A stretch of 64,000 nt of DNA, taken from a virus. Lineage: Duplodnaviria > Caudoviricetes. The notes beneath the pieces were generated by a model, which saw only the letters and a program-made list of their open reading frames with translations, was not told the origin of the DNA and made no database searches. The stretch covers positions 648 to 64,647 of the IMG/VR virus record IMGVR_UViG_3300015245_000006. One strand, 5' to 3'. Below, in pieces: positions 8,561 to 64,000 of the stretch (its first letter is position 1; each line of letters begins with the position of its first letter). The position numbers and the translations under genes were made by a program.

Positions 8561-9112
8561 ATGCCGCGTAAGTGCAAATGTGGGGCGCCAATCGACAACG
8601 GCATGAACCGTTGTCGGCCGTGTCACGCCGACGCGGAGCGCGCACGGCGCAAGACTTGCCGGCCATCGATTGAAGAGAAACGTAAGAACCGCGCGCGCTC
8701 TGCGGCTCGCGCAGCCAGGAATCGCGGAACCCTAATTCCCCAGCCATGCTCGTGCGGTGCTGAAAGCTCTGAGATGCATCACGAGGACTATTCCAAACCG
8801 TTGGAAGTGAAGTGGTTTTGCCGCAAGTGCCATGTGGCGTTGCATTACCCGGCACATGCTCGAAAGCACAAAAGGATCAAATCGATGAAGTTGGGCGCGT
8901 GGATGGAGCGCAATTTTTGGACGACAGACATGTTTGCCGAGAAAGTTGCTGCCGAACTGAACAGAAGCACTTTTTCGCCTCGGACGGTCGAGGCTTGGAG
9001 GCAAGGCCGCGCAATCCCACGGTACCGGATGCTGCCCGTGATCTCGAAAATCACGAACGGAGAGGTAACGGGGGACGATTTTGTTTCACATGAAACGAAA
9101 GGTACTTTGTAA
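8561..9112 (+). CDS. HNH-like zinc-binding domain fused to Cro-like HTH
   Basis: HHEDYSKPLEVKWFCRKCH; C-terminal SPRTVEAWRQGRAIP...ITNGEVTGDDF; internal ATG 8885 with AAGGA. Confidence 0.7.
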   Translation: MPRKCKCGAPIDNGMNRCRPCHADAERARRKTCRPSIEEKRKNRARSAARAARNRGTLIPQPCSCGAESSEMHHEDYSKPLEVKWFCRKCHVALHYPAHARKHKRIKSMKLGAWMERNFWTTDMFAEKVAAELNRSTFSPRTVEAWRQGRAIPRYRMLPVISKITNGEVTGDDFVSHETKGTL

Positions 9113-9853
9113 ATGGCTGAATTTTCAGCGATTTCCTGGACAGATGCGACGTTCAACCCGTGGATCGGCTGCACCAAGGTCTCGGCGGCGTGCGACGGTT
9201 GCTATGCCGAGGCCGACAACAAGCGCCGGAAGTGGGTCGAGGGCTGGGGCGCTGGCGTCCCGCGGCGCCGGACCACGAAAGCCTATTGGCGGCAACCGCT
9301 CGCCTGGGATCGGCTGTCGGTCCAAAACGGCAGGAAAATGAAGGTCTTCGGCGGCTCGCTGTGCGATTTTCTCGATAACGAGGTCGATCCGATCTGGCGC
9401 GACGACTATTGGGATCTGATCAAGGCCACGCCGAACCTGTGGTGGCTGCTGCTGACCAAGCGAATTGGCAATGCGCGCAAGATGTTGCCGCCGGATTGGG
9501 GCGAGGGCTATCCGAACGTCGTGCTGATGGCGACGCTGGAGAGCCAGGAGGTCTGGGACCGCGACATTGACAAGCTCATGAGCGTGCCGGCGGTACTGCA
9601 CGGCGTGTCGGTGGAACCGATGTTGAGCCATGTCGATATCTGTGGCTGGCAGCCGGACTGGATCATCACCGGGGGCGAGAGCGGGCCGAATCGTCGGCCG
9701 CTCGATATGGATAACGTGCGCTCGATGCGCGACCAATGCGCCAGCGCCGGCATCGCCTTCCACCACAAGCAGAACGGCGGCTTGCGCGGCAAGGACAATG
9801 GCTGCCTGGTCGACGGGGTCGAGCACAAGCACTTTCCTGTGGCGCTGCGGTGA
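9113..9853 (+). CDS. phage Gp37/Gp68 (DUF5131) radical-SAM-like protein
   Basis: WTDATFNPWIGCTKVSAACDGCYAE, LLTKR, SVEPML, WIITGGESG. Confidence 0.9.
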   Translation: MAEFSAISWTDATFNPWIGCTKVSAACDGCYAEADNKRRKWVEGWGAGVPRRRTTKAYWRQPLAWDRLSVQNGRKMKVFGGSLCDFLDNEVDPIWRDDYWDLIKATPNLWWLLLTKRIGNARKMLPPDWGEGYPNVVLMATLESQEVWDRDIDKLMSVPAVLHGVSVEPMLSHVDICGWQPDWIITGGESGPNRRPLDMDNVRSMRDQCASAGIAFHHKQNGGLRGKDNGCLVDGVEHKHFPVALR

Positions 9854-10131
9854 AGAAACCCCAGCGCATTCCTTACCGCTCGAAAAAGACCGGCGAAACC
9901 AAGGTCTTCGAGTACGAGCAGCGGGATTACCGGATGGACGCGGTCGAGCGATGCCGGCGCGCATTGGAGCGCCGGCCGCTTCGGCTCGTGCGCAACAAGA
10001 GCGGTGGAAATCGCTGGCGGGTGGGCAAAGGTGGTCACGTCTACAATGACGCCACCGTACGGCAGTTGATCCGTGCAGGCGTCGCCGTCTGCGTCGGCGA
10101 GTTCGTTGAACTGAAAGGCAAGGTCAGATGA
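9850..10131 (+). CDS. hypothetical protein
   Basis: GTGA-coupled start VKKPQRIP. Confidence 0.6.
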   Translation: MKKPQRIPYRSKKTGETKVFEYEQRDYRMDAVERCRRALERRPLRLVRNKSGGNRWRVGKGGHVYNDATVRQLIRAGVAVCVGEFVELKGKVR

Positions 10132-12263: not shown

Positions 12264-12445
12264 CGCCAATCATCCTGATCTATCTCATTCTCAATGCCCA
12301 GCACCGCTGGGAGTTTCTCACGATCGAACGTGCGGAAAGCGCAACCTATTGCGGTTTTCTGGTTAATGAGGTGAACCACATGTTCACCGATACACCTGGC
12401 AATATCCGAATCATCTGCGTGAAGGACACGGGAATCGACATATGA
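12260..12445 (+). CDS. hypothetical protein
   Basis: ATGA coupled. Confidence 0.55.
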   Translation: MTPIILIYLILNAQHRWEFLTIERAESATYCGFLVNEVNHMFTDTPGNIRIICVKDTGIDI

Positions 12446-12630
12446 AGTGTCCCACCCTCGACGAGCGCAAAGTCTGCCAGTTCTGCGAGCGTCCGTTCCG
12501 CTGCCCGCTCGCGCAGCCCGAGCGCTTCATCTGTGGGCCTTGCGGAGGAAAACATGAGACGCCGAAAACTCCCTCCGGACAAGAGACTGGATTGGCGCGA
12601 CCCGAACATGCCGGTGTTCCGGAGAGTTGA
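12442..12630 (+). CDS. small Cys-rich protein
   Basis: CQFC...CGPC. Confidence 0.5.
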   Translation: MKCPTLDERKVCQFCERPFRCPLAQPERFICGPCGGKHETPKTPSGQETGLARPEHAGVPES

Positions 12631-12787
12631 GCGGCTGGGGCGTGTCAGCGTCGAACCGATCTCGCCGGAAGAGGAGCAGGCGTGGTGCAAGGAGTGCGTC
12701 GAGCGGAGCAAGAACCCACACTGGTCGGAAGACGAAACCTATACGTTGCGCCGCTACAAGCGGAAGAAGTACCTGAGGAAGACCTGA
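12554..12787 (+). CDS. hypothetical protein
   Basis: GGAGG RBS; LDWRDPNMPV. Confidence 0.6.
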   Translation: MRRRKLPPDKRLDWRDPNMPVFRRVERLGRVSVEPISPEEEQAWCKECVERSKNPHWSEDETYTLRRYKRKKYLRKT

Positions 12788-12930
12788 TGTTGCGGCCAGA
12801 ACCGTGGCCGCATCTCGTGCACTATCGGTGGGGACGAGTCTCTCACGTTCCACCCGACCGCTTCTTGTTTCGAACCAAACCGCACGGCCCCTCGGATTGC
12901 ACCTGGATCGTGCCTGGGACCGGCCAGTAA
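12787..12930 (+). CDS. hypothetical protein
   Basis: TGATG coupling. Confidence 0.45.
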   Translation: MLRPEPWPHLVHYRWGRVSHVPPDRFLFRTKPHGPSDCTWIVPGTGQ

Positions 12931-12945
12931 AGGAGGATAGCCAAC

Positions 12946-13140
12946 ATGGAGTTGTTTAGAGCGTATGCGTCGTGTGTCCAGGCGTGGATGGAGTTCATCA
13001 ACGTTGCGGATCATCCGCGCGAGGACAATCGCGTGGGGCCACCCTACGACCGACAATCGCAGGTCAAGCAGGGTGTTGTCGATGGTCCGCGCCGCAGCAC
13101 GACGCGTGAGGCTGAGGCAGCACGGAGGCGCGGCCAATGA
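12946..13140 (+). CDS. hypothetical protein
   Basis: AAGGAGG RBS. Confidence 0.55.
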   Translation: MELFRAYASCVQAWMEFINVADHPREDNRVGPPYDRQSQVKQGVVDGPRRSTTREAEAARRRGQ

Positions 13141-13418
13141 AACCAGCAGCAATGGCGTTGTCGCTCTTCCTGGGGATCTACACGCCGGTTCAATACGGTG
13201 GGTTCGGGCCTTACGGGCCTTACGGCCGACCGGCGCCTGACGCCTATGACCTTCCTCCCTGCAATCCCTACTACAATCCGAACTGCGGCAGGTTTCGCGA
13301 AGAAGGTCCGCGCGCGCGGCAGTTTCGGTGCGAGCAGTATCCCATGATGCCGGACTGCCCGCGCGGTCGACGGGGTGATCCTTACGAGGGCCCTGGGCCC
13401 TACAATCCAGACGAGTGA
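13137..13418 (+). CDS. small secreted Pro/Gly/Tyr/Cys-rich protein
   Basis: signal-like N-terminus; GFGPYGPYG; 4 Cys. Confidence 0.6.
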   Translation: MKPAAMALSLFLGIYTPVQYGGFGPYGPYGRPAPDAYDLPPCNPYYNPNCGRFREEGPRARQFRCEQYPMMPDCPRGRRGDPYEGPGPYNPDE

Positions 13419-13423
13419 CGCTC

Positions 13424-13552
13424 ATGACAATCTGGTATTGCCTGGCGGGCTGGACCGTCATCTCGTGCGCGCTTGGCTACGGCATTTGCCGCTACTGCCT
13501 GCGCGCGCGCCGCCACGAACGCGATCAGTTCTGGAAACAGCCAGAATTATGA
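13424..13552 (+). CDS. small membrane peptide (42 aa)
   Basis: Read manually: MTIWYCLAGWTVISCALGYGIC... Confidence 0.45.
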   Translation: MTIWYCLAGWTVISCALGYGICRYCLRARRHERDQFWKQPEL

Positions 13553-13797
13553 CCAACACCCGCATCATCCCATGCCCATCCTGCCTGGGCGATAAGGGCC
13601 ACGAGGTGCCCTACGACATCAACCGCTTCAACGGCGACTGCATTTGTTACTGGCAGCATTGCTCGACGTGCGGAGCGGAAGGTGACGTCGAGATCGAGCT
13701 CGAGGAGATCGAAATGGAAGATCTCGACGAATGCTACGGGATTGAAGCCGATCGCTCGCAAGAGGCGCTGGCGCTGCTTTTGGGAGAAAACGAATGA
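13549..13797 (+). CDS. DnaJ-type zinc-finger small protein
   Basis: CPSCLGDKG...CSTCGAEG. Confidence 0.65.
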   Translation: MTNTRIIPCPSCLGDKGHEVPYDINRFNGDCICYWQHCSTCGAEGDVEIELEEIEMEDLDECYGIEADRSQEALALLLGENE

Positions 13798-14159
13798 CTG
13801 CGGAAGAAAACTTTCACTGCAAGGTCGGGAGCCGGGTCGATCCCCGCACCCCAAAACAGGTTCGCGATGAGTGGCGCGGCAAACCCCTGGTCGAGCGGCT
13901 CGAAGGGTTTGCCAACGAATGCGACGATGCCGGCGGCAGCATGCTTCTGTCCGCCGCCGACATCCGCGAAGCCATCGCTATCATCAAGGATAAGGAGCTG
14001 GAGCGCCTGGTGACCGCCTGGCGCGATGCGCGCGCGGCTTGCGTAAACCTCGATTGGCCGAAGGTTCGTTTCGACGATCCGAGGATTTCGGCAACATGGA
14101 ACGCCGTGAAGAAGGCCGAAATGGCCCTCCTTCAGCACGCCATCCGGAGCCTGCCATGA
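13794..14159 (+). CDS. hypothetical protein
   Basis: coupled ORF, 121 aa. Confidence 0.6.
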   Translation: MTAEENFHCKVGSRVDPRTPKQVRDEWRGKPLVERLEGFANECDDAGGSMLLSAADIREAIAIIKDKELERLVTAWRDARAACVNLDWPKVRFDDPRISATWNAVKKAEMALLQHAIRSLP

Positions 14160-51637: not shown

Positions 51638-54600
51638 GTGGCATTTAGCGATGCCATGATCGGCAGCAACGATTTCGATCCCCAGGCCGCGACCGAGGAT
51701 CTGATCCGCCGCCTATCGGACGAGCCATTGCCGGACACGCTCGATCCGAAAATGCTCAATACCCGGCTGGCGCGCAAGCTCGGCGCCGAGCCGCCGAAAG
51801 AAGTCAAGGCCCCGAAAGCACCGGAGCTTGACTTTTCGGCGCAAGCCATTCCGGCCAGCAATACCGAGCCTGGCAATGTGCTCGATTTCACCTCTCAGGT
51901 ACAACCAACTCCGGTAGCCGCAGCCGCGCCCGGAACGTCGGTTACGGATAAGCTTCAGAGCGTCCACGAGAATATTGATCCCGCGACGGCCGCCAAGGGC
52001 TTCGCGAAGGGTGCCATGCAGGGCACCGGCGGCGTGATGAAGGGCGCCGCGCGCCTTCAGAGCCAGGCGCAACCTTACCTCAATTCCCTCGAGTACGACC
52101 CCATGGGCAACGTCATCGGCCAAAAGCCGGTGCAGCCACCCACTCCAATCGAACAGAACCCGGTTTACCGGGCCGGCAAAGCCGTGGAAGGAGCCGCGCC
52201 AGGCATGACGCCGGCCGAGGAAAGCTCCCTGACCGGCCAAGTCGGCACTATGGCGGGCGGAATTGCGCCTTATGCCGCGGCCACCCTTGTCGGTGGTCCC
52301 GCGCTCGGCATCGCCGCGGGCTTCACCGGCATGGCGGCCGATACCTATGGCAAGGTCTACGAAGAGGCGATCGACAAAGGCGCCGACGAAGCGACCGCAC
52401 AGAAGGCCGCAAGCCGTTCCGCCTTGGTCGCCGGCGCATTGGGTTCGTTGCCGCTCGGAGCGGGTAAGCTCGCCAAAGGGTTGATCGCCAAGGCCGGGAC
52501 CAGCGCGGCAGCATTCGCCGGCCTCGGCGAGGCACAGCATTGGGCGCTGGAGGAAATCGCCAAGAGCTACGATCCGGAACGCGGCTATTCGCTCGAAGCC
52601 AAGCGGCTGATCGCCGAGCTGATCCTCGGCGCCGGCATGGGCGGCCTGCACTATGCCCAGACCGACCACGTCAACATCAACACGTCGAGCGGACCAACGC
52701 CGACGGCAGGATTGCCGCCTCCGGCCGGAGGTAGCCCGCAAGGCGGTGCTGGATATGGTCCGGGAGGACGGCCGAATCCTGGCGCTGGCGCGTGGCCTGG
52801 AGACACAGGTTCATGGTCTCAACCGCCTCCTGGCGGTGGACCGCAGCCGGGACCGGGACCTCAGCCTGGTCCGCAATCGAATGCTGGCGCCGCTGGGGGC
52901 GCGCATCAGCAGCAGGGACCCCAGCCGCCGCCCGGCGGACCTGGCGGCACCCAAAGTGGCCCACGGCCCAATGCAGGCGGTGGCGGCCCGGGATCGCAGC
53001 AGCAGGCCAAACCGCCGCCTGGCGCTGGCGCCGGCAAGGGCCCTGAGTTCACCATGGACGCCCGCATGCGCGCGAAGATGGAGAAGGTGTTCCGGATGTA
53101 CGAGCCGGGCGCCGACGTCTCCGGCATGTCGGATTCCGACCTATTCAACGCCGTCAACGAGCACCTGCGCGACACCTCCAAGACCGGCTACACGGCGAAG
53201 CCGGAGACAGAGCAGGAAGCAGCGGCGCGCGAGGCGACCGCCAAGCGGCGCGATGAGGACGAGATCCTGCGCAAGGCCGGCTGGACCGACGCGCATATCA
53301 ACGCGATGAGCGAGGAGCAGCGCGCGTCCTACATGGCGCGCGCGCAAGGCGCCAAGCCCGAAGCTGCTCAATCGCGGAAAGATCGGACAGATCGGAAAGA
53401 TTCGGAACAGGCGGCCGAGCCAAAAGTCGAAGAGCCAGTGGCCGCGGCCAGTGGTGAAAATCAAAATGCCCCAAAAAACGAGCAGTTAGATATTCACCAG
53501 GGCACGCGCGAGGCGCCGATCGTCCCGAAGACCGCCGACGAGGTGGTCAAGGCACAGGCCGCGGAGCCAACACCAGCCCAGGCCAGCGCCGAGAACTACC
53601 AGCACGCACATGTCGAGCTCCCGCAGTTCGGGCTGACGGGCGACCGCTCGGTGTCGATCGAGACCGGTGTTGGTCAGACCCGCAAGGGCATCGGCGAAGA
53701 TGGGAAGCCCTGGGAAGTCCAGATGCAGGGCGGCGCGTACGGCCGGATCAAGGGCACGAAGGCGGCCGATTTCAAGCACGACGCGGACGGCAACCAGATC
53801 CTTGACAAAGATGGCAATCCGGTCCGTCAGAACCTCGATATCAAGATCGGACCCAATCCGACGAGTCCGTACATCTTCATCGTCGACCAGCACGACCCGA
53901 AGACCGGCAAGTTCGACGAGCACAAGATCCTGGCCGGTTACCGCACGCCGCTCGATGCGCTGCACGGGCATGCGCTCGATTATGGGGATCACGCGGAGGG
54001 CCGAATCGGTCACGTCACCGCGATGGGACCGGAAGAGTTCAAGGCTTGGCTGAAGACGGACACGACAAAGCCGTTGAAGCCGGAGACCGCGCCGCCGACC
54101 TCGATGCGACCTGAAGCCGTCGAGGCCGGCGCGCGTACTCCTCTGACTGAGGCTCCGGGTGAAGGCGCCAATTCCGAAGTCCCGAAGGTCGAACCCAAGG
54201 GCACGGCCAAACCGAAAACAACTACTACGGGTTTAGGTTCCGAGCAGCCGCTCTCGTTGCTGCAATTTATCGCTTCGAAAGGCGGCATTAAGGCACATCC
54301 CGAGTTGGCGGCGATTGGTCTCACCGGTGTCCACAGGATTGTGGTACCGGGCCGGAAGGGCTTTGCAGCCACGGTTTCACCAAAGGGCATGCATCTCGAC
54401 AAGATGCGTGAGGCCGCGCAGGAAGCCGGATACCTGCACGGCGAAGGCGAAAAGACATCGACAATCCGTGACTTGCTGGACGCAATTGATACCGAGCTTC
54501 GGGGCCAGAAGAAGCATGCGGCTGGCGAGGAAGGCACCAAAACTAAGGCTGAAGCCACCCTGGCGGCCGAGCGCGAGGCGCACGAGCAGGAGCGCCATGA

Positions 54601-57600
54601 AGCCAATTACGGCGAATCGGAGCGCTCCGTCGAAATCGAATATCCGGAAAGCCCGCTGGAGGTGCGCGCCGCGGCTGGGCGCCTGATGGTGGACGAGGGC
54701 ATGGACGTGCACGACGCGGTCGAGCGTGCCTCGGTGCAGCTTGCCAACGAGGATGAGCACTACCGCGAGACACCAGACCAAATCATTGATACATTCGGGC
54801 CCGAGGCAGACCATGTTATTCACCGCGCAACAGCACATGAAGATGGCGAAGAGACTGCACGCGCGGTCGAAGCAGGAGCGCGACCCGGTGGCGGCGAAGA
54901 AGCAGAAGGGCTTGGCGCACACGTTCCGGAGACTGGCGCAGCAGGCGGCGAAGAAGCAACCGCCGAAGTAAAACCCACCGTCGAGAAAGGCGCCGACAAC
55001 AAGCCGCAGCTTGTTATATCTGGCGCCGAGAAGATCGGCCAGGGCGCGCAGGCCAAGCGCGCGGCTGCCGCAGCGCTCAAGCCAAAAGTCACACAAAAGG
55101 CCATGGACGTTGGCCTGTTCGGCGACGAGAAGGACCAGGCTGACCTCCTCGACACCATCCGCGCATCGGAGCGCAAGATCGAGAAGGCGCTCGGCAAGGA
55201 TGCCGACAAAGTGGCGCCGGTCGATATCGCTCGCGCCGCCGAAATCATGGCCGAGCACGAAGGCATGGAGCCGGCCACGGCCTTCGGCCAGGCTGTGATC
55301 GAGAATGCGGTCGATCATGACTTCATCACGCCGCAGCAAGCCGAGGAAGCCTATGGCGAAAAAGTCAAAAACATATTGGACGCCGGACGGCAAGGGGCAT
55401 CTGGCGGCGGGACACCTGTTGAGCAAGAACGCGCCGCACCTGGGGAAGAGCGCACCGGTAGTGCAGCGGAAAATGGCGAGCTTCCGGGCGGCGGCGAAGC
55501 TGGCGAAGCAGGCGAGTCCGAACCTGCCCGTGCCGAAGGTGCAGGCCTACCCGAGCCTGCCGGGCCTGAAGCCACCGAGCCAGGAGCCACCGGCGGGGCT
55601 GAAGCCGCTGGGGACGAAGCCGGCAACGCCGCTGAACAAGAGCCTGCCGCCAGCCCTACCGACTACGCCGGCCTGACACCGCTCGATCGCTATAAGGCGG
55701 TCGCAAAGCGCATCGTCGCGGGCGATATCGGCGCCGACGAATTGAAATCGGAGTTCGCGCGCGTCCTGCATAGCGGCGATTACATCAAGGCCGAATTGAA
55801 CAGCCGCACGATCAAGCAACTGGCGCCGCGTGGCGCTGGCAGCATGAGCAAGAAGGAGATTGTCGACAGGATCTACTCGAACATGCTCCAGCGCTTCAAC
55901 GTGCATGGAAGCGTGACGTGGCAGCCGATGGGCCAGGAAACCTTTGAGGGCGCGCTCGCCAATCGAATTGAGAACACCACCGACGCCGATATCCAAGAGG
56001 CGACCGCCAAGCGCCAGGCCGAAAAGGCTGAATGGGAACAGACTTACGGCGATCCGCAGAGCCTCTATCAGTTCGAAGCCTTCATCCGCGCCAAGGGATT
56101 CGGCAAGCTCACGCCGGAGCAGCGCGTTCGCTACGATGAACTGAGGGCCGAAGAGAATCGCCGCGAGCTCGAGAAGGCAAAGGCCGAGCGCAAGAGCGAT
56201 GTCCGCAAGGTCGATACCGAAGTCGGGATGGAACTCGTTGAGACCAAGCACACGCAGAAAGGCCACGACCTGTTCGTGGTCAAGATGGCCGATCGCGTTG
56301 AGGCTGAAACTTACAAGGAACTGAATAGCGCGGCGAAGCGCCTGGGCGGCTACTGGTCGAGCTATACCAAAGGTGGAGCGGTCCCGGGCTTCCAGTTCAA
56401 GACCAAGGATGCCGCCGAGAAGTTTATGGCGGTACGCTACGGCGACGTCAGCCGCAAGGATCTCGTCCAGCACAAGGAAGAGAAGCGGCTTGAAGGCGCG
56501 GTGGACAATCTGCGCGACCAAGCCGAGCGCATGACGGTCGCGGCTGATGAGAAGCTCGGCGCCGATCGGCTGGTGAACACCGCGCGACGGGCCAACATAG
56601 CGGCCGGCGCTGAGGCGAAAGCGAATGCCGATAAGGCGCTCGCGACCAGCATGCGCAACATCGCCGATGCAATCGAGGCTGGCGAGGCGACACATCTGGG
56701 CTGGTTGCGTACGCGCGCCGATGTCGAGATGCTGGATCGGATCACACGCGGTACCAGACGCGATTGGGTCGAGGCGCAAAAGCCGGCAGACTACGGCGAG
56801 CGGCAAAAGCTGGAAGAGAAGCCCATCAGCCAGGAGATGATCGACGCGGCGCATTACCCATATCCCTACGCGCACCGCGAGGAAGTTGTTAAGCTGGCGC
56901 AGGCGGTATCAAAAACTCCCGGTGCCAAGATGGCCGCAGCGCGCCTGATGAAGGAAGCGCGACTTGCCGAGTCGAAGAAGCAATGGCGCGTCGAAGCCAC
57001 ACACCTTGGCACCTTGGACGATTTCAAGACGGTCGGAGAAGCCGCAGCGAAACTTCCAGGCGCCAAGTATGGCGCAAACACCATGCTGGAGTCGTTCAAC
57101 GATTTTAACCGGCTGCGGCGCCTTGGCATCAACGATCTGCCCTCACTGCGCGCGGCCCTGCGTGAGTTCCTGAAATTCCGCGGGAGTGCCGCGAAGGCCG
57201 ATCCGATCAAGGCTGCGGAGCGCGCTCTGGTCGGGCGCAAGATCCCCGGATATTTCCCCACCCCGGATGCTCTGGTCGATCGGATGATTGAGGCGGCCGA
57301 TATCCAACCAGGCATGAGCGTGCTGGAGCCGTCGGCCGGCAAGGGCAACATTGCGGACAAACTCGCGCTCGCGGCTGATCCGGGCGCTTTGTCCGTGATC
57401 GAACCTGTGCCTGATCTGCGCTCGATCCTGAAGGCCAAGGGCCACGACATCGTCGATAGCGATTTCCTGGATCACAAGGAGCGCGGCTTCACCTATGGCG
57501 ACGTCTACCGCGCGCCAGACGGCACGCTTGGTGTCATGCACGGAAGCAACGGCATCGGCGGCAATCGTGTTGGGTTCGAGAGGCTGGACGCCAATGGCGA

Positions 57601-60600
57601 GCCATTCAAGGGAAGCCGCAGCTACTATGATCGCGGCGAATTAGAGCCGGTCGAGAAGCGCGGCTACAACAGCGGCTACGACCGCATCGTGATGAACCCG
57701 CCATTCGAGGATCGGCAGGACGTCGCGCATGTCCAGCACGCTTATGAGATGCTGAAGCCTGGCGGGCGCCTCGTTGCCATCATGTCGGAGGGGCCGTTCT
57801 TCGGGTCCGACAAGCGCGCGAAGGACTTCCGGGATTGGCTGGAGAGCGTCGGCGGCACGAGCGAGAAGAACCCGGAGGGCTCATTCGAAACCAGCGAGCG
57901 CTCCACCGGGGTCAACACCCGTATGGTAGTGATCAACAAACCGGCCGGCGGCTTTTCGGAGATGATAGCGCCGATGCTTGGTGCCAAAGCACAACAATTC
58001 ACGCTCGAACGTGGCCGCGCAACAGGCAATGAACATCTTGTGCTGTATGACAGCGAAGGCAATCTGGTTGCTCAAATCGAAGGTACCAAAAGCGGGTTGC
58101 GGTTCACGCCGGAAATCGAGCGCATGATTCGTGATCCGGATAACGACATTGTTGCTCATCATAATCATCCGATGAATCGTAGTTTCAGCGCAACCGACAT
58201 TGGTTGTCTGGCTGCGCCTGGACTTCGAACCGTGTGGGCACATGGTCACGGTGGCGCCATCTACCGAGTCAACCTGACACCTGAGGCGCGTCGGGCGCTT
58301 CCGATCGACATCAATCAGGCCGCCGGTTCGCTGGCAAAATATTGGTATGCGGCCGAAGGCGGACTGAAAGCATTTATCGACCCGCATTACAAGGCATCCG
58401 GGAAAGACCCGGAGTTTGCGGCAAACTTCGAAGTGGCATGGGCACATCTCATCAACGAGATCATGCGTGAGGCAGGGATCACGGAGTATCAGACCAACTT
58501 CGAAACCGACCCTTCTATTACAGGTCTCCCGAAACTATCTCAGGCCATGGCATATGTGGCCGACACCTTTAGAAAGGGCTTGTTCGGTGACGAAGGACCC
58601 CCGGCCGCTGGGCGGCTTGATCGACGACCCGACTCCATTCGACACCCTGGAAACATGGGAGTCTCATTTGATCGATCTGAAGTCGCAACCCCCGTCAACC
58701 CTGGGCAACGAGGCGCTTCACCACGCGGCAAAAATGATCTCCGAGAAGAAGAAAAAGGACTGAGTCCGGCGCCGACGGAACCGCCCGATCGCAGCGTCAC
58801 CCTTGGCGCCTGGGGCGATCCATCCAAGGTGATCCGCGAGTTCAAGCGCTTCTGGATGTCGACCTTCCAACCCGAACTGGTGAGCGATCGCGCGCTGATG
58901 GCAGATCCGCTGTTCGCGCGCTACAAGTCCGCCAGCGCGCAGGAAAAGGATGCGCTGGTTCGGCAGAGCGAAAAGGAGTGGAATTACTGGAACAAGCGCG
59001 GCGATGCAGAGCGCATTCGCTTTATCGACGACGTCGAGACACGCGTGTTCGGCAATGTCCCAGCCGATCCGGTGCAAGCCGCGATGGCGCGGCGGTATCG
59101 CGCCATGCTTGATGCCAATTGGGCTTTGGAGAAGCGTTATGGTTCGCAGGCGGCGTTTGTCGAAGACTACTTCCCGCACATCTGGGAAAGGCCGGACGAT
59201 TGGCGCGCCTTTGCCGAGGCTCGCAGCGCCCAGATGGGACCAACCTGGTTCCAGAAAAAGCGCACCATCGACTACATTACCGACGGCTTGGCCGCTGGCC
59301 TTAAGCTCAAATATACGAACCCTGTCGACATCGTGGTGCACCGTCTCCTTTCCGGAGTCGATATGCGTCAGCGTATGGAATTGCTCTACCAGCTCAAGAA
59401 AGAAGGGCTTGCTTGGGAGGGGGCTCACGGCGGGGCTCCCTTGGTAGAGCGCGGCTGGCGCGCCATCAATGCGCCGGACCGCAAGCAGTGGGTTATCCAT
59501 CCGGATGTGCAACCACTTTGGAAGAACGCCGTCGAGGCCAAGGGGCTGTGGCAGGACGAAAGCCTCGGCGGCTCGATATTCCGCGGCTGGATGAGCTTCA
59601 AGAACGCCTGGGTCCCGGTGAAGCTCGCGATGAGCGCGTTCCATCCGCTGCACGTCCTGCACATCAACTACTCCAACGGCATGGGCCAGGGCTGGGATAA
59701 CTTGGTCAAGGGCAAGGACCCGGTCGGCGCGCTGAAGGCGGTCGCCAAGGGCTTCATGGGTCCGATGATCGCGGCGCCTGGAGCCACGATCGGGGCTGTG
59801 GCAGGTACGGCTCTGGGTTCTACCATGGGTATGCCGGGCTGGGGTGGCCTGCTTGGCTCGATCGCGGGCTCGGCAGCCTTTGCGGGCGCCAAGCGCGCCG
59901 GCCTGGTGAGTGCGCCAGCCACCCGCGAGGCGCTCGCCAGGAGCGCCTGGAGCACGCGGCCGAACAGCGCTGGCTGGAATAGGCTGACACCCGCACAGCG
60001 CGCCGACGTGGCCCTAATGACCGATGGTGGCTTCTCGCCGCAACTGTCCGAGCAATTGAAGATCGGCGCCAAGCGGCAGCTCGCGGTGGCGTTCCAGAAG
60101 ACCCTGCGCGGCGAGGCCAAGCCCGGCGACTGGCGCAAGATGGTGGCGGCCTCGATGCGGCGCGGCATCGAGGTGTTGCAGGCGCCCATCTTTGAGCGCT
60201 GGATTCCCGAGCTGAAGACCTCGGCGTATCTCCAGGCCGCCTCGGCGCTGTTGAAGCGCCAGCCGCAACTCTTGACCGAGCATGCCGACCGGCGCCTGGC
60301 GCTGCGCGCAATCGCCAAGTCGATCGACAACCGCTTCGGCGAGATGTTCTATGGCACCCTGTTCTGGAACCGATACCTGAAAGACGCCGCAATCGGTTCG
60401 TTCTTGTCGCTCGGCTGGAATCTCGGCTTCGTGCGTGAGTTCGGGGGTGCCGCGATGGAGACGGTGTCGCGCCCGGCCGGGCTTATTCCTGGTCTTAAGC
60501 CAGGCGCACCGCGCAAGCAGATCAGGAGTGCGACGAACAAGATTCCGTTCGTGATCGCCTACGTGGCTTCGGCAGCGCTAATCAACGCCATCATGACCAA

Positions 60601-61489
60601 GCTGTTCTCCGGGGAAAATCCGGAGGGGCTCGACTTCATCTTTGCGCGGATTGGTGGCGAAAACCCCGATGGCTCGGCTCGGCGCGTGACGAACATGTTC
60701 TACCTGCGCGAGGTGCCGATGCTGATGAAGCATGTGCAGGAGCGCGGCGGCAACTTCATGTCCGGAGCCGGCGAGATGGTTTGGAACAAGATGATGTTCG
60801 GGCCCTTCCACGAGCTTCTCAACAACCGCAACTACTACGGCTACAACATCTGGGACGAGAACGCGCCGCTCTATAAGCAGATCTGGCAGGCGATGCGCCA
60901 CGGGCTCTTCGGCGAAAGCAGCCCGATGACCTTCTCTGGTGCGGGACAAGCCGCGCGTTTGTCCGGAAAAGAGTTCCCGAGCGCGAAAGAGGCGATCGAG
61001 CACCCGGACCGGATGATGGACGCCTTGCGCGCGAAAGGTGTGGATATGAGCTTCCTTGGCTTCGGACCGGCTCCCAGCTATGTGGAGAAGTCTGCAATCC
61101 AGAATAGAATCGGTTACCTCTACCGCGAGCACGTGGCGCCGGTGTCCAAGCCACAAGCCGAGGACGAAAACTCAAAGGAGAAGATGGCGGTTCGCACCGC
61201 CATCATGATCGGGAAAAGAGACAAGGACGCCGACATGATCAACCTCGCTCGCGAGCGGGGTCGAGCGATCGGGCTCACGCCAAAGTACATGGCGAATATC
61301 GGTAAGACGCCAACGGATGTGTATCTGTTCTCGCGGCTGCCGGATGAAGACCAGCGCTCGCTTTTGCGCAACGCTTCGGAGGAGGAGCAAAGTCGTTACT
61401 TCAGGCACGCGCACCTGAAGGTCAGGCAGGAGATCAACCGCGCCCGCTACGCGCCACAACCGCCAGCAGCGCAACAACAGGGACTTTGA
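51638..61489 (+). CDS. giant polyvalent internal virion protein (InPase-like, N6-adenine MTase, JAB/MPN-like and structural domains; DarB-like)
   Basis: 3283 aa; YGRIKGT...FDEHK (InPase-like); FPTP, VLEPSAGKG, NPPF (MTase); E..HNHP...S.TD (JAB). Confidence 0.85.
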   Translation: MAFSDAMIGSNDFDPQAATEDLIRRLSDEPLPDTLDPKMLNTRLARKLGAEPPKEVKAPKAPELDFSAQAIPASNTEPGNVLDFTSQVQPTPVAAAAPGTSVTDKLQSVHENIDPATAAKGFAKGAMQGTGGVMKGAARLQSQAQPYLNSLEYDPMGNVIGQKPVQPPTPIEQNPVYRAGKAVEGAAPGMTPAEESSLTGQVGTMAGGIAPYAAATLVGGPALGIAAGFTGMAADTYGKVYEEAIDKGADEATAQKAASRSALVAGALGSLPLGAGKLAKGLIAKAGTSAAAFAGLGEAQHWALEEIAKSYDPERGYSLEAKRLIAELILGAGMGGLHYAQTDHVNINTSSGPTPTAGLPPPAGGSPQGGAGYGPGGRPNPGAGAWPGDTGSWSQPPPGGGPQPGPGPQPGPQSNAGAAGGAHQQQGPQPPPGGPGGTQSGPRPNAGGGGPGSQQQAKPPPGAGAGKGPEFTMDARMRAKMEKVFRMYEPGADVSGMSDSDLFNAVNEHLRDTSKTGYTAKPETEQEAAAREATAKRRDEDEILRKAGWTDAHINAMSEEQRASYMARAQGAKPEAAQSRKDRTDRKDSEQAAEPKVEEPVAAASGENQNAPKNEQLDIHQGTREAPIVPKTADEVVKAQAAEPTPAQASAENYQHAHVELPQFGLTGDRSVSIETGVGQTRKGIGEDGKPWEVQMQGGAYGRIKGTKAADFKHDADGNQILDKDGNPVRQNLDIKIGPNPTSPYIFIVDQHDPKTGKFDEHKILAGYRTPLDALHGHALDYGDHAEGRIGHVTAMGPEEFKAWLKTDTTKPLKPETAPPTSMRPEAVEAGARTPLTEAPGEGANSEVPKVEPKGTAKPKTTTTGLGSEQPLSLLQFIASKGGIKAHPELAAIGLTGVHRIVVPGRKGFAATVSPKGMHLDKMREAAQEAGYLHGEGEKTSTIRDLLDAIDTELRGQKKHAAGEEGTKTKAEATLAAEREAHEQERHEANYGESERSVEIEYPESPLEVRAAAGRLMVDEGMDVHDAVERASVQLANEDEHYRETPDQIIDTFGPEADHVIHRATAHEDGEETARAVEAGARPGGGEEAEGLGAHVPETGAAGGEEATAEVKPTVEKGADNKPQLVISGAEKIGQGAQAKRAAAAALKPKVTQKAMDVGLFGDEKDQADLLDTIRASERKIEKALGKDADKVAPVDIARAAEIMAEHEGMEPATAFGQAVIENAVDHDFITPQQAEEAYGEKVKNILDAGRQGASGGGTPVEQERAAPGEERTGSAAENGELPGGGEAGEAGESEPARAEGAGLPEPAGPEATEPGATGGAEAAGDEAGNAAEQEPAASPTDYAGLTPLDRYKAVAKRIVAGDIGADELKSEFARVLHSGDYIKAELNSRTIKQLAPRGAGSMSKKEIVDRIYSNMLQRFNVHGSVTWQPMGQETFEGALANRIENTTDADIQEATAKRQAEKAEWEQTYGDPQSLYQFEAFIRAKGFGKLTPEQRVRYDELRAEENRRELEKAKAERKSDVRKVDTEVGMELVETKHTQKGHDLFVVKMADRVEAETYKELNSAAKRLGGYWSSYTKGGAVPGFQFKTKDAAEKFMAVRYGDVSRKDLVQHKEEKRLEGAVDNLRDQAERMTVAADEKLGADRLVNTARRANIAAGAEAKANADKALATSMRNIADAIEAGEATHLGWLRTRADVEMLDRITRGTRRDWVEAQKPADYGERQKLEEKPISQEMIDAAHYPYPYAHREEVVKLAQAVSKTPGAKMAAARLMKEARLAESKKQWRVEATHLGTLDDFKTVGEAAAKLPGAKYGANTMLESFNDFNRLRRLGINDLPSLRAALREFLKFRGSAAKADPIKAAERALVGRKIPGYFPTPDALVDRMIEAADIQPGMSVLEPSAGKGNIADKLALAADPGALSVIEPVPDLRSILKAKGHDIVDSDFLDHKERGFTYGDVYRAPDGTLGVMHGSNGIGGNRVGFERLDANGEPFKGSRSYYDRGELEPVEKRGYNSGYDRIVMNPPFEDRQDVAHVQHAYEMLKPGGRLVAIMSEGPFFGSDKRAKDFRDWLESVGGTSEKNPEGSFETSERSTGVNTRMVVINKPAGGFSEMIAPMLGAKAQQFTLERGRATGNEHLVLYDSEGNLVAQIEGTKSGLRFTPEIERMIRDPDNDIVAHHNHPMNRSFSATDIGCLAAPGLRTVWAHGHGGAIYRVNLTPEARRALPIDINQAAGSLAKYWYAAEGGLKAFIDPHYKASGKDPEFAANFEVAWAHLINEIMREAGITEYQTNFETDPSITGLPKLSQAMAYVADTFRKGLFGDEGPPAAGRLDRRPDSIRHPGNMGVSFDRSEVATPVNPGQRGASPRGKNDLREEEKGLSPAPTEPPDRSVTLGAWGDPSKVIREFKRFWMSTFQPELVSDRALMADPLFARYKSASAQEKDALVRQSEKEWNYWNKRGDAERIRFIDDVETRVFGNVPADPVQAAMARRYRAMLDANWALEKRYGSQAAFVEDYFPHIWERPDDWRAFAEARSAQMGPTWFQKKRTIDYITDGLAAGLKLKYTNPVDIVVHRLLSGVDMRQRMELLYQLKKEGLAWEGAHGGAPLVERGWRAINAPDRKQWVIHPDVQPLWKNAVEAKGLWQDESLGGSIFRGWMSFKNAWVPVKLAMSAFHPLHVLHINYSNGMGQGWDNLVKGKDPVGALKAVAKGFMGPMIAAPGATIGAVAGTALGSTMGMPGWGGLLGSIAGSAAFAGAKRAGLVSAPATREALARSAWSTRPNSAGWNRLTPAQRADVALMTDGGFSPQLSEQLKIGAKRQLAVAFQKTLRGEAKPGDWRKMVAASMRRGIEVLQAPIFERWIPELKTSAYLQAASALLKRQPQLLTEHADRRLALRAIAKSIDNRFGEMFYGTLFWNRYLKDAAIGSFLSLGWNLGFVREFGGAAMETVSRPAGLIPGLKPGAPRKQIRSATNKIPFVIAYVASAALINAIMTKLFSGENPEGLDFIFARIGGENPDGSARRVTNMFYLREVPMLMKHVQERGGNFMSGAGEMVWNKMMFGPFHELLNNRNYYGYNIWDENAPLYKQIWQAMRHGLFGESSPMTFSGAGQAARLSGKEFPSAKEAIEHPDRMMDALRAKGVDMSFLGFGPAPSYVEKSAIQNRIGYLYREHVAPVSKPQAEDENSKEKMAVRTAIMIGKRDKDADMINLARERGRAIGLTPKYMANIGKTPTDVYLFSRLPDEDQRSLLRNASEEEQSRYFRHAHLKVRQEINRARYAPQPPAAQQQGL
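54813..54971 (+). CDS. nested +1-frame gene N1 (52 aa, basic helical)
   Basis: CCGAGG-N6-ATG; MLFTAQQHMKMAKRLHARSKQERDPVAAKKQKGLAHTFRRLAQQAAKKQPPK. Confidence 0.65.
   Translation: MLFTAQQHMKMAKRLHARSKQERDPVAAKKQKGLAHTFRRLAQQAAKKQPPK
55353..55676 (+). CDS. nested +1-frame gene N2 (107 aa, basic, Pro-rich tail)
   Basis: CCGAGG-N6-ATG; MAKKSKTYWTPDGKGHLAAGHLL...FRAAAKLAK. Confidence 0.65.
   Translation: MAKKSKTYWTPDGKGHLAAGHLLSKNAPHLGKSAPVVQRKMASFRAAAKLAKQASPNLPVPKVQAYPSLPGLKPPSQEPPAGLKPLGTKPATPLNKSLPPALPTTPA
58587..58763 (+). CDS. nested +1-frame gene N3 (58 aa)
   Basis: AGAAAGGG-N8-GTG; ...LIDDPTPFDTLETWESHLIDLKSQPPSTLGNEALHHAAKMISEKKKKD. Confidence 0.65.
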   Translation: MTKDPRPLGGLIDDPTPFDTLETWESHLIDLKSQPPSTLGNEALHHAAKMISEKKKKD

Positions 61490-62532
61490 TTCCCATGAAG
61501 CTCGATCCGACTATCGTTCGGCGGTTGTGGCCCCGTGCTCCCCAGAAGAAAATCGATGCGATGTGCGCAGTCTCGGAGGAAGTGTTTGCGGAGCATGACA
61601 TCGATGACGTGCATGTCGTGATTCAGTTGATGGCGAATATCAGCCACGAGAATGGAGCCGGCACCATCGTCCGGGAAAGCGGCAACTATCGCGCCGAACG
61701 AATCGTTGAAATCTTCGGAGCCGGAAAGTCATCCGCCAAGGTCACGCCGGAGGAAGCCGTAAAGCTTGCGCACAACGGGCCAGCGCTGTTCGACCGGGTC
61801 TATAACCTGCCTGGCTCGCCCAAGCTTGCGCACGAGCTTGGCAACCACGAGCCTGGCGATGGCAATAAATACCGTGGCGGTGGCGATCTTCAACTCACCG
61901 GCCGCGCCAACTATGAACGGATCGGCAAGATGACCGGCCATCCGGAGATCGTGACCGATCCAAATCTCCTGGTCGATCCTGTCGTCAGCTTTCGTGTTGC
62001 GGTCGCGGAGTTCGTAGCGCTTGGTTGTATCGCACCTGCTTCACGCATGCAGACCACGCGCGTTCGCCGGCTGGTGAATGGCGGCACGAATGGCCTTGCC
62101 GAGGTGACGGTTTGGGTCGGTCACTGGTCGGAAGAGATGCCGGACGTCGAGACGCCGCCGGTGGCGCCGCGCGGTGCGGACACGGACAACAAGAGTCTGA
62201 TGGGCTCCCGGATCATGAAGGGTGTTGTCTCGACCGCGGCCACCACCGCAGTTGCGACCGCTTCGAAGGTTGCCGAGAACGCCAACACCACGAGCCAAAC
62301 GGTCGATGTGTCTTCGGTGCAGGATCACATCCAGAAGGCCAACGACACCATCACCACGATCCAGACCACGGTGGACTCCGGCAAGGTGCTCGTGCAAACG
62401 GTCAAGCCGTTTCTCGGTCTGCCGCCGAACCTTTGGGCCACCATCGCGATTGTCGCATCGATCATTGCGATTGCGACGCTGACCTATACCGGCTGGCAGC
62501 GCTGGGTGAAGCTCCGGGACGAGGGCGTGTGA
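61486..62532 (+). CDS. GH19 (chitinase-like) endolysin with C-terminal TM segment
   Basis: HENGAG, GDGNKYRGGGDLQLTGRANY, VNGGTNGL; alternative start 61495. Confidence 0.85.
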   Translation: MIPMKLDPTIVRRLWPRAPQKKIDAMCAVSEEVFAEHDIDDVHVVIQLMANISHENGAGTIVRESGNYRAERIVEIFGAGKSSAKVTPEEAVKLAHNGPALFDRVYNLPGSPKLAHELGNHEPGDGNKYRGGGDLQLTGRANYERIGKMTGHPEIVTDPNLLVDPVVSFRVAVAEFVALGCIAPASRMQTTRVRRLVNGGTNGLAEVTVWVGHWSEEMPDVETPPVAPRGADTDNKSLMGSRIMKGVVSTAATTAVATASKVAENANTTSQTVDVSSVQDHIQKANDTITTIQTTVDSGKVLVQTVKPFLGLPPNLWATIAIVASIIAIATLTYTGWQRWVKLRDEGV

Positions 62533-63116
62533 TGTTCAACGGCGATCTGATCTGGGGCGTCTCGTGGATCTGGTATCTGATCGGTGTCCTCGGCGTCGGC
62601 GGTACGATCGCGTTTTTCGTGCTCGATGCCGTGGCGGCTGCGGCCTTCTTCAAGGGCATCATCAAGTTCCTTTGGAGCACGCGGATCGGCTGGGCATTGG
62701 TTGCCGGCAGCTTGTGCTTCTTCATTGCCGACACGACGCGGTCGCGCCGTGATGAAGCCGCGTTCGCCGCGCGCACTGCAGCGTTCGAGGAGAAGCAGAA
62801 GCAACGCGATGAACAAATCGCGCAGGATACCCGCACCGCGGTCTTGCAAGAGTTGGCTCAGACCAAGATCGAGGACACTGAAACCGACAAAGACGTGAAG
62901 GAGTTCCACGATGTGCCGCCGGTCCCTGGGTTGGCTAATCCTTTCCGGGTTGGTCCTGATGCTGACCGGCTGCGCGTCATCGCCGGGGCACCTGACCGTG
63001 GATCTAAAGGCGCTCAAGGAGTGCCAAAGGCTCGGAAACCAAGCGTCACTGCCGGACATCACGGAGGATTCCGATTACCGAAACTTATCCGCCGCAGCCC
63101 TGGGCCAACTGAATAA
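62532..63116 (+). CDS. i-spanin (Rz-like)
   Basis: N-terminal TM segments then coiled coil; overlapped by lipoprotein gene. Confidence 0.7.
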   Translation: MFNGDLIWGVSWIWYLIGVLGVGGTIAFFVLDAVAAAAFFKGIIKFLWSTRIGWALVAGSLCFFIADTTRSRRDEAAFAARTAAFEEKQKQRDEQIAQDTRTAVLQELAQTKIEDTETDKDVKEFHDVPPVPGLANPFRVGPDADRLRVIAGAPDRGSKGAQGVPKARKPSVTAGHHGGFRLPKLIRRSPGPTE

Positions 63117-63189
63117 GGCCAACCGCGGCATTGCGGCGCGAACCCGCTGTGAGAACAGCGTCATCGAGAAGTACGGGGCCGCCAAGTGA
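62911..63189 (+). CDS. o-spanin (Rz1-like lipoprotein)
   Basis: lipobox LTGC; +1-frame overlap; AAGGAG RBS. Confidence 0.8.
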   Translation: MCRRSLGWLILSGLVLMLTGCASSPGHLTVDLKALKECQRLGNQASLPDITEDSDYRNLSAAALGQLNKANRGIAARTRCENSVIEKYGAAK

Positions 63190-63575
63190 CCAACGAAGAG
63201 AACGGCCGCTTGCACGAGATGAGCGCTGAAATCGGCGGCCTCAAAGCCTCTCTCGAACTGCTTACGAAGATCTGGCAGCAACAGGATTCCGCAGCCGCAG
63301 CCGGCCGGCGAGCACTCTATGAAAAGTTTGAGTTGGTTCGCCAGGAGAGCGGCATCCAAATCGCCGGGCTCGGTATTCGAGTCGACCGGCTATCCGACCA
63401 GGTCAAGCTTGTCGAGCCATCCATTCAAGCCTTCAAGGACGAGAAGCTCCGAAAGGAAGGTGCCGAACGACTTGGTGTCAGGCTCTATACCGCGATGATC
63501 GCTGCGGCTGGCTTGGTCGGATGGGGACTCCACGAGTTCGGCGATAAGATTTCTGCTTGGCTGAAATCGTTCTAG
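63186..63575 (+). CDS. coiled-coil protein with C-terminal TM (holin/hemolysin XhlA-like)
   Basis: coiled coil plus LYTAMIAAAGLVGWGL; in lysis cassette. Confidence 0.6.
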   Translation: MTNEENGRLHEMSAEIGGLKASLELLTKIWQQQDSAAAAGRRALYEKFELVRQESGIQIAGLGIRVDRLSDQVKLVEPSIQAFKDEKLRKEGAERLGVRLYTAMIAAAGLVGWGLHEFGDKISAWLKSF

Positions 63576-63605
63576 CTGATACCAACACATAACTCCCATG
63601 ACTTG

Positions 63606-63638
63606 ACGGCCCCTCGCTCACGCGGGGGGCCGTTTTTC
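63606..63638 (+). terminator. intrinsic terminator ending the late operon
   Basis: ACGGCCCCTCGC-TCAC-GCGGGGGGCCGT followed by a T run. Confidence 0.85.
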
Positions 63639-63649
63639 TGTGTGTAATG

Positions 63650-63811
63650 TTAAGGCTGGATGCCGTAAATCTCGCATAGGTGCTGCCAATTTCGAGCGAA
63701 CCCATTCCCATGCCAGCCCGGCTTGGCGAACATCGGCCAGCCCGTCGCGTGGCCTCGATGCCCGGTGTTGAACCATCCTTGGGCTTTTGCTGCATGCTCG
63801 AAGCGACACAT
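63650..63811 (-). CDS. hypothetical protein (53 aa, below track cutoff)
   Basis: AAAGGAAA-N6-ATG; MCRFEHAAKAQGWFNTGHRGHATGWPMFAKPGWHGNGFARNWQHLCEIYGIQP. Confidence 0.6.
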   Translation of the reverse strand: MCRFEHAAKAQGWFNTGHRGHATGWPMFAKPGWHGNGFARNWQHLCEIYGIQP

Positions 63812-64000
63812 TTACGGTTTCCTTTCCCTGCTGTGATGAATAGATGAATTTTGCAGAGCGGGCCGGATGCGAACCCGGCTGTCTCGGGATGTTGCAATCC
63901 CTCATGCGGCCTTGCAAGATAGGACCACTACAGCCCTGTGCCGTGCGTGTCGCTTCCACGCCGCCGCTCTGCAAAATTCACGATTTCCTTTGCTGTGATG
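63810..64000 (-). repeat. two copies of leader motif CATCACAGCA(GGGA)AAGGAAA-yCGTrAAT
   Basis: plus strand 63810-63838 and 63976-64000. Confidence 0.75.
63845..63980 (-). ncRNA. non-canonical tRNA-like RNA
   Basis: 17-bp perfect closing stem; D-like arm GCGTG-GAAGCGA-CACGC; T-like arm GCCGG-GTTCGCAT-CCGGC abutting the 3' stem. Confidence 0.65.

Follow-up and report, generated by a model that had tools for sequence, protein, structure and literature searches.

Short cassettes that recur in dissimilar phages have been described from several directions, and each has its own hallmarks. Among the mycobacteriophages these are the mobile elements known as MPMEs, which are about 440 base pairs (bp) long and contain an open reading frame (ORF), and in T4-type phages they are promoter-stem-loop cassettes. 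Miniature inverted-repeat transposable elements (MITEs) have terminal inverted repeats, a target-site duplication that abuts them and several copies per genome, while retron non-coding RNAs (ncRNAs) have flanking inverted repeats together with an adjacent reverse transcriptase gene. T7-type intercistronic RNase III sites are simple hairpins with internal loops, and double-strand-specific RNases use helices of about 22-24 bp. In tRNAs the canonical T-loop has 7 nucleotides (nt) of the T-Psi-C-R-A type, and the anticodon arm, with 5 bp and a 7-nt loop bearing U33 and R37, begins one base after the D arm; an attachment site derived from a tRNA is expected to be accompanied by a phage integrase and to be identical to the 3' part of a working host tRNA. 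Y RNAs, as set out in one study (PMC4201824), are 80-130 nt long and have a long stem formed by the two ends, together with a Ro-binding motif near the 5' end, GNCGAAN0-1G or a GGUCCGA-like variant; the same study gives Yrn1 a D-before-T order, opposite to that of YrlA, and uses the rule (Chen et al. 2014) that a Y RNA gene is found on the strand of the Ro60 gene and no more than 4 kb away. Here we analyse a 136-nt element on the minus strand of a tailed soil phage (Caudoviricetes), IMG/VR virus record IMGVR_UViG_3300015245_000006. The stretch that was analysed (the window, 64,000 nt) corresponds to bases 648-64647 of the 64,647-bp record and thus to nearly the whole phage; the element runs from window position 63980 to 63845, and a position p within it is window position 63981-p.

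The 136-nt element is a real, conserved and horizontally shared module of an unclassified kind, since a near letter-for-letter copy is carried by an otherwise unrelated soil phage. The original prediction had drawn a tRNA-like unit here from the letters of this phage alone, and its conservation elsewhere supports it as a unit. A scan of JGI metagenome contigs with a 21-mer of the element returned two records, L015 and L016. L016 covers 15 kb of a 45.6-kb contig whose products include a terminase large subunit (phrog_2) and members of other phage families; it carries the element at 5654-5789 on the plus strand, the same strand as its genes. Identity to L016 is 96.9% over 160 bp, and to L015 95.7% over 94. 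This phage and L016 share no other DNA, and tblastx finds a single distantly related protein (33-56% identity). When soil-metagenome contigs of four runs were compared over 62500-64000, parts of which have no contig cover, some contigs matched just 63832-63991 and then continued into unlike sequence. This 160-bp segment on the minus strand is the full shared unit, common to the other phage and to the metagenome contigs; a contig from run X1 differs from it by 1 letter in 160, and run X8 matches it in pieces. By these sequence comparisons the known members of the family are the copies in this phage and in L015/L016 and those on contigs of soil runs X1 and X8.

The genes around the copies differ. 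Upstream there are two contexts: L016 has a gene for a small zinc-finger-like protein, this phage one of 54 codons. Downstream there are three, an HNH endonuclease gene (L016, L015 and X8), a different gene in X1 and a 53-codon ORF here. In both phages the element is intergenic and in the orientation of the flanking genes, about 20-30 nt past a stop and about 16-30 nt before the next start; in this phage the distances are 27 nt past the stop of the 54-codon gene and 33 nt ahead of the 53-codon ORF, and the HNH endonuclease gene of L016 begins 16 nt past the helix. The X1 contig combines an L016-type upstream flank, a copy of the type found in the window and a third downstream flank, indicating that the element sits at mosaic junctions.

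The ends of the element are formed by an inverted repeat that is far beyond chance. The perfect 17-bp stem of the original prediction is there, with arms at 63845-63861 and 63964-63980 that are 100% complementary and lie 102 nt apart, and no other perfect inverted repeat in the window with a loop of up to 150 nt is as long, the runner-up having arms of 12 nt. The longest inverted repeat across 60 first-order Markov resamples of the window was 13 bp, and none (0/60) reached 17. The minus-strand RNA has a predicted fold of -69.6 kcal/mol (z -6.36) and the plus-strand RNA one of -61.0 kcal/mol (z -4.22), neither of which was equalled in 200 shuffles. The 5' strand of the terminal helix, TGAATTTTGCAGAGCGG (p1-17; 63964..63980, minus), has pair probabilities of 0.54-1.0, and its inner 7 nt, AGAGCGG, would be the 'acceptor' strand if the element were read as a tRNA. 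The 3' strand, CCGCTCTGCAAAATTCA (p120-136), occupies 63845..63861 on the minus strand.

The pattern of differences between the two phages is uneven. Against L016 there is 1 difference in the 136 nt of the element and 4 in 24 aligned flanking bases (Fisher p=0.0018), with similarity continuing 11-13 nt past the helix arms. The internal difference is at p132 (63849), which is A here and G in L016 and lies opposite U5, so that a U-A pair becomes U.G on the sense RNA; on the antisense RNA the same change gives a C.A mismatch, and in DNA the inverted repeat becomes imperfect. This change is the sole strand-specific clue, and it is a single event.

Between the helix strands, all four inner hairpins that had been described can be found on the minus strand. 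A 2-nt linker (CG) follows the 5' strand, as had been stated, and leads to the D-like hairpin GCGTG-GAAGCGA-CACGC (p20-36; 63945..63961, minus; pair probability 0.15). The D-like and T-like hairpins are separated by a 65-nt middle (p37-101, minus) that contains the two small hairpins. The first of these, AGGGC-TGTAGTG-GTCCT (p44-60), is enclosed by CGGC...GCCG in a middle insert (p38-74; 63907..63943, minus; ensemble probability <=0.001), which also holds a first UUGCAA (p64-69; 63912-63917, minus). The second, GGGAT-TGCAAC-ATCCC (p80-95; 63886..63901, minus), lies 6 nt before the T-like hairpin and holds a second UUGCAA (p84-89; 63892-63897, minus); the two hexamers are self-complementary and could pair together. 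The T-like hairpin, GCCGG-GTTCGCAT-CCGGC (p102-119; 63862..63879, minus), has an 8-nt loop, GUUCGCAU, and abuts the terminal helix with no linker, which again agrees with the earlier description, as does the absence of an encoded CCA: after the inner 7 bp and a G the next bases are CAA.

The arrangement of these hairpins into one structure fares less well. The fold originally drawn has an energy of -56.2 kcal/mol (-60.5 with an extra CGGC/GCCG helix) against the minimum of -69.6, placing it 9-13 kcal/mol above the minimum-energy fold, and it is not thermodynamically preferred. Across the ensemble, pairing in the D-like and T-like hairpins reaches a probability of about 0.15-0.16, that in the two middle hairpins <=0.012. 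At the energy minimum the RNA forms a rod, its D-like and T-like regions paired with each other (p28-31 with p109-112), the D-like loop GCGA and the T-like loop UCGC being complementary over 4 nt, while a suboptimal fold at -69.5 has the D-like hairpin, the T-like region as 7 bp with a UCGC loop, and one long central hairpin. The terminal helix is certain in these models; the inner layout is not fixed by thermodynamics or decidable from one sequence.

The position of the element in the phage bears on how it would be expressed. Minus-strand genes, including those for an exonuclease, a Dam-like methylase and a DUF1367 protein, extend from about window position 7,400 leftwards through the start of the record and up to the element, which lies at the 3' end of this leftward (early) operon, between co-directional genes. 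Plus-strand late genes close with endolysin and spanin-like genes, and a terminator-like hairpin (63605..63634, plus) ends these rightward late and lysis genes at the point of convergence of the two operons, about 210 nt past the element in the minus-strand direction. Neither a promoter-like nor a terminator-like site was predicted at the element or flanking it, and without such a site of its own the element would be co-transcribed with the operon. Over the next 204 nt downstream, structure is at an ordinary level (z -0.68), and a second structured RNA was rejected there. The record has a 77-bp end overlap (window 63924-64000 = record 1-77) that starts in the middle of the element; the record therefore reads as a circle with the element intact. 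This overlap is a sign of circular assembly and not of physical ends, and the assembly graph may have branched at the element because it is shared with other phages in the sample.

Just before the helix is a leader, CATCACAGCAAAGGAAATCG (63981..64000, minus), with a Shine-Dalgarno-like AAGGAAA followed by a GTG, which opens a 17-codon frame that continues into the element. The trailer (63815..63844, minus) consists of TCTATT and CATCACAGCAGGGAAAGGAAACCG, ahead of the ATG of the 53-codon ORF (63811..63650). Leader and trailer hold the first and second copies of a near-direct repeat that brackets the element, CATCACAGCA[GGG]AAAGGAAA[T/C]CG, in which the Shine-Dalgarno-like motif is contained; as far as these letters go, this bracketing fits insertion by recombination at short leader homologies.

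Summed over the readings in which RNA is the active form, we moderately favour a function at the RNA level. Our best explanation, which we put forward tentatively, is that the element is a structured RNA module of about 136 nt on the sense strand that is co-transcribed with its neighbours, processed, exchanged between phages and active in trans; its transcription, its processing and its action in trans are what we infer. The module would be carried between two small genes in the leftward (early) polycistronic transcript, where the 17-bp helix and a coaxial hairpin of 5-7 bp would form about 22-24 bp closing a core of three or four hairpins. The helix would offer a double-stranded processing site for an RNase III-type enzyme; alternatively, its inner 7 bp and the T-like hairpin could be handled as a tRNA minihelix and lead to processing by RNase P/Z. 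Processing would free a discrete, nuclease-resistant RNA that may act in trans as a protein-binding decoy or as a scaffold, and the module, with about 12 nt on each side, would travel between soil phages that are not related, through recombination at short homologies in their leaders. In support, the terminal helix is far beyond chance and the minus strand folds better than the plus strand; the change at p132 keeps the sense-RNA pair; and the phage has no integrase, resolvase or reverse transcriptase that would use the locus as a DNA site or a retron.

Several observations weigh against the tentative account of a trans-acting RNA. The evidence base is three contexts and one substitution, and that single substitution within the element provides no compensatory change for the inner helices. 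Near-identity of the copies could come from recent transfer and not from selection, and the same orientation in 2 of 2 contexts is coin-flip support. The interior is weakly palindromic, 13 of 500 shuffles scoring as well, as is expected of a DNA palindrome. None of the 10 runs listed as containing the element is an RNA run. Diverged relatives were absent from INPHARED, where a distant blastn search was made with 401 nt, and from PLSDB under distant blastn. Exact scans of IMG/VR returned 6 loci for the T-like 18-mer, none of them homologous, 3 for the 17-mer arm, all chance matches in apparent coding sequence, and 0 for the D-like anchor, and a loop-motif pattern returned 73 loci, none resembling the element. 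The T-like 18-mer has at least 120 loci in GTDB genomes, and among the matches listed none aligns over more than 24 nt. Bacterial genomes were sampled in equal parts (802 = 401 Pseudomonadota + 401 Acidobacteriota), and blastn of the 160 bp matched 0/401 of the former and 2/401 of the latter, both with short matches in apparent coding sequence. The element matched none of 4227 Rfam families.

Other searches gave a similar picture. A covariance model of the element, R1, run over 853 kb of collected sequence, recovered the known copies only. The neighbouring 129-aa and 102-aa proteins (aa, amino acids) had no related viral loci, and the phage endolysin as query gave 3 distant loci. The protein encoded upstream of the element in L016 has 7 homologues at 64-98% identity, and it matched no IMG/VR locus. 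Two loci on other viral contigs, L007:4767-4873 (minus) and L003:1670-1730 (minus), have an identical 18-nt hairpin, GCCGGGTTCGCATCCGGC, on a 6-7-bp terminal helix without a linker, in L007 about 225 nt upstream of a tRNA-Thr; they share just this hairpin with the element (17 bits with R1, fold z -1.5 and -1.0).

Possible, though in our judgement unlikely, is an explanation at the level of DNA, in which the element is a palindromic cassette, MITE-like or produced at recombination junctions, with no RNA function, and the arms are terminal inverted repeats or protein-binding sites. The perfection of the terminal inverted repeats, the near-identical copies in unrelated genomes, the weakly palindromic interior and the mosaic junctions seen in X1 are all consistent with it, as are the HNH endonuclease gene that begins 16 nt downstream in L016 and the start of the 77-bp end overlap within the element. 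The bracketing near-direct repeat would also be accommodated, as deleting one repeat with the unit would leave a plain intergenic leader. However, there is one copy per genome: the 64.6-kb record has the element and the copy in the end overlap only, and R1 detected no second copy in either the window or L016. The bases next to the arms (..TCG | and | TCT..) show no target-site duplication, similarity runs 11-13 nt past the arms instead of ending there, and the sole internal change breaks the DNA repeat yet keeps the RNA pair. The phage proteins have no match to integrase, resolvase or reverse-transcriptase families, transposase families not having been searched, and the cassette was not found in the 802 sampled bacterial genomes, PLSDB or INPHARED.

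We consider rather unlikely the view that the element acts in cis on its own messenger, as an intercistronic hairpin for processing or stability or as a translational device, the latter through the 17-codon leader frame (AAGGAAA, GTG, three consecutive Arg codons) being read into the 5' strand of the helix. This would agree with an intergenic, sense-strand, co-transcribed element that has no promoter or terminator of its own, with a helix of about 22-24 bp that suits double-strand-specific RNases, and with the retention in both phages of the Shine-Dalgarno-like leader and of the GTG at the first base pair. However, the flanking genes differ between contexts (two upstream, three downstream), indicating that no particular gene is regulated, and 102 conserved inner bases would be superfluous in a plain processing hairpin. 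For the leader frame, conservation is no more than that of its nucleotides and is no independent sign of translation.

The resemblance to tRNA that drew attention to the element in the first place is attractive in its geometry, and it failed every model-based test applied; tRNA mimicry is only a possible sub-case of the trans-acting RNA. The original prediction, of a non-canonical tRNA mimic, is borne out in that this is neither an ordinary nor an intron-containing tRNA: ARAGORN gives 0 tRNA or tmRNA genes in the window. Rfam gave 0 matches at gathering thresholds, and in 63400-64000 no tRNA, transfer-messenger RNA (tmRNA) or YrlA at E<=10, the matches at that level being of the terminator type plus two chance matches to small nucleolar RNA models. 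The tRNA model RF00005 found nothing at E<=10 in the whole phage, whereas it was positive in 14/14 control genomes. That the element keeps a 'tRNA elbow', as was proposed, is not supported: the T-like loop has 8 nt (GUUCGCAU) with C in place of A58, and the D-like loop is without the canonical pattern. Under relaxed settings (introns allowed, threshold 90%) ARAGORN does name a 'tRNA-Cys(gca), 22-nt intron' with p42-63 as the intron, but 50 calls arise in the window when it is run in this way, and the tRNA-Cys call is therefore noise and was given no weight.

In one form of this idea, the exchanged cassette would encode a tRNA-shaped decoy that host tRNA-processing enzymes excise from the early phage transcript at the inner 7-bp 'acceptor' and that, with two GCA-anticodon-like UUGCAA loops displayed on a T-arm/acceptor scaffold, titrates a host factor recognising tRNA; we think it quite improbable. 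If true, that factor could belong to a defence system, as an anticodon nuclease, or could be a modification enzyme or Ro60, and the element would represent a new class of counter-defence RNA in phages, mobile among unrelated ones as a unit of 160 bp.

More improbable still is that the element is a decayed, functionless remnant of a tRNA, for instance a pseudogene resembling tRNA-Cys or a piece of a former attachment site, that recombination carries along. The tRNA-like junction spacing, the GGUUCG.AUCC in the T-like loop, the GGAUUGCAA.AUCC in the preceding hairpin and the tRNA-Cys label of relaxed ARAGORN would be relics under this explanation, although no tRNA model scores the element and that label is at noise level. 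The 3' half does align with tRNA-Cys 3' fragments of viral contigs, at a score of 31 where the null reaches at most 24, but the set was fetched with the element's own motifs, so that the alignment is biased and was not counted, and in an unbiased blastn against 5 sampled genomes the 3' half gave chance-level matches only, with tRNA genes at 0/8 of the best-hit loci. The phage has no integrase match, and a dead sequence would not keep 135/136 positions while its flanks differ at 4/24, unless the transfer was very recent. Four viral contigs (L145, L199, L202 and L208) have tRNA-Cys 3' parts, GGATTGCAAATCC...GGTTCGAYTCCGG...CGCCTCCA, that neither ARAGORN nor Rfam calls, and in L202 the fragment adjoins tRNA-Gly and tRNA-Leu genes; they are probably attachment-site pieces of phages that integrate into tRNA-Cys.

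The least probable of the readings weighed here, and a very doubtful one, makes the element a Y-RNA-like partner of Ro60 (Rsr), laid out as Deinococcus Yrn1, with the end helix as the Ro-binding module and the branched core as effector. In L016 a Ro60 orthologue (TROVE 2.1e-14, with a vWA domain; 8547-9992, plus) follows the element by 2.76 kb on that strand, inside the 4-kb, same-strand range given in PMC4201824, and the predicted 17-bp end helix and D-before-T order fit the description of Yrn1 given there. This phage, however, has no TROVE protein or anything like the L016 Ro60, and L016 has a YrlA-like array of its own directly upstream of rsr, with protein genes between the array and the element. 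The YrlA model (RF02553) gave nothing at E<=10, GNCGAAN0-1G is absent from the 136 nt when the sequence is read by eye, and the helix is perfect, with neither the bulge nor the internal loop described for Ro sites. The array in L016 (L016:7940-9992 with the Ro60/Rsr gene that follows it) consists of four or five tandem units starting GACGCTGCAG...GGATACTTCG. Two of these score as YrlA, at 33.2 bits and below the threshold of 69, and show the permuted YrlA order of T-arm, stem-loop and D-arm; the whole looks like a multi-copy Y-RNA array in a phage.

Other candidates were rejected. Among the phage proteins there is no match to Phage_integrase or Resolvase and none to RVT_1, the reverse transcriptase family, at E<=1, and the attachment-site and retron readings are removed by the lack of an integrase, recombinase or reverse transcriptase; the 8-nt loops mean, in addition, that the element cannot equal the 3' half of a canonical tRNA, and the genes downstream, where a retron would have its reverse transcriptase, are the 53-codon ORF here and the HNH endonuclease in L016. 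An integron attC site was rejected by eye for want of core-site-like ends, and a self-cleaving ribozyme, 6S, C4, tmRNA and HEARO for want of any Rfam match at E<=10. A plus-strand ORF across the element was rejected as coding: no homologue of 28-91 residues was found, and the similarity to L016 stops at the edge of the element.

Some features of the surrounding genomes are recorded here in their own right. Two genes upstream of the element in this phage, just outside the window, is a gene for a 102-aa protein (L002:245-553, minus; record 245-553) with invariant IWFHGT, EFGG and GNWQM blocks and 5 homologues among 5.8 billion clusters. Sequence searches of Pfam, PHROG, PADLOC and PDB matched nothing, and its AlphaFold model has a confidence (pLDDT) of 46.5; its H..E pattern may be ADP-ribosyltransferase-like. 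A predicted lipoprotein of 126 aa (L002:587-967, minus) matches Pfam Phage_VG64 (2.5e-52), and its PHROG (phrog_478) is labelled a recombination directionality factor, yet the phage has no integrase or resolvase match. Directly ahead of the lysis genes there is a single ORF of 3283 codons (window 51638-61489, plus). The late-gene terminator (window 63574-63647, plus) has a sub-threshold match to the mmgR/suhB small RNAs, 27.6 bits against a threshold of 41, which probably reflects just a hairpin and a U-tract. The 124-aa HNH endonuclease of L016 (L016:5803-6177; phrog_2118 / phrog_1271) has no obvious Shine-Dalgarno sequence, and its presence in some contexts and replacement in X1 would be typical of a free-standing homing endonuclease. 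L016 also has an ARAGORN tRNA-Thr with anticodon AGT (L016:12225-12302), just upstream of its terminase large subunit gene (12325-13872); A34 is unusual in a Thr tRNA.

If the element works as RNA, it would be an unclassified structured RNA that unrelated soil phages keep base for base and exchange as a small cassette. Such conservation and exchange are typical of accessory genes that pay their way, in counter-defence or host takeover, and are rarely documented for non-coding RNAs. If the element works as DNA, few palindromic cassettes seen at mosaic junctions in phages would be smaller, and it would mark a hotspot of recombination. In both cases it is a concrete, short and testable object, a candidate new phage RNA or cassette.

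Compared with known systems, the element takes something from each of several. Like a tRNA, it would stack an inner 7 bp (AGAGCGG/CCGCUCU) on a 5-bp T-like stem with 0 nt between them, with CG as the linker on the other side; a gap of 6 nt follows the hairpin with the UUGCAA loop, and the T-like hairpin after it has GGUUCG.AUCC in its loop. The loop of the hairpin at p80-95 reads UUGCAAC like a tRNA-Cys anticodon loop in L172, but with one base extra, and this comparison is biased by the choice of the set that was compared. Unlike a tRNA, class II and intron-containing ones included, it has a terminal helix of 17 bp, that is, 10 further bp beyond the acceptor-like 7, and 43 nt between the D-like hairpin and the GGGAU-UGCAAC-AUCCC hairpin, where a tRNA has one base; the loop of the latter has 6 or 8 nt, the other motif, UUGCAAG, needs a 22-nt 'intron', there is neither an encoded CCA nor a canonical D-loop, and the T-like loop is one base too long. 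With the Y RNAs, both YrlA and Yrn1, it shares its size class, a long helix formed by the ends and a branched, partly tRNA-like core. Like the MPMEs and the T4-type promoter-stem-loop cassettes, it is short, non-coding or nearly so, almost the same in dissimilar phages, placed between small early genes and bounded by short repeats; unlike the MPMEs, it is much smaller, has one copy per genome and no target duplication abutting its arms, and unlike the T4-type cassettes it is without a promoter-like site. Like the T7-type RNase III hairpins, it puts a long double-stranded stem between early cistrons, but here a perfect 17-bp stem closes a branched interior of 102 nt that is conserved base for base.

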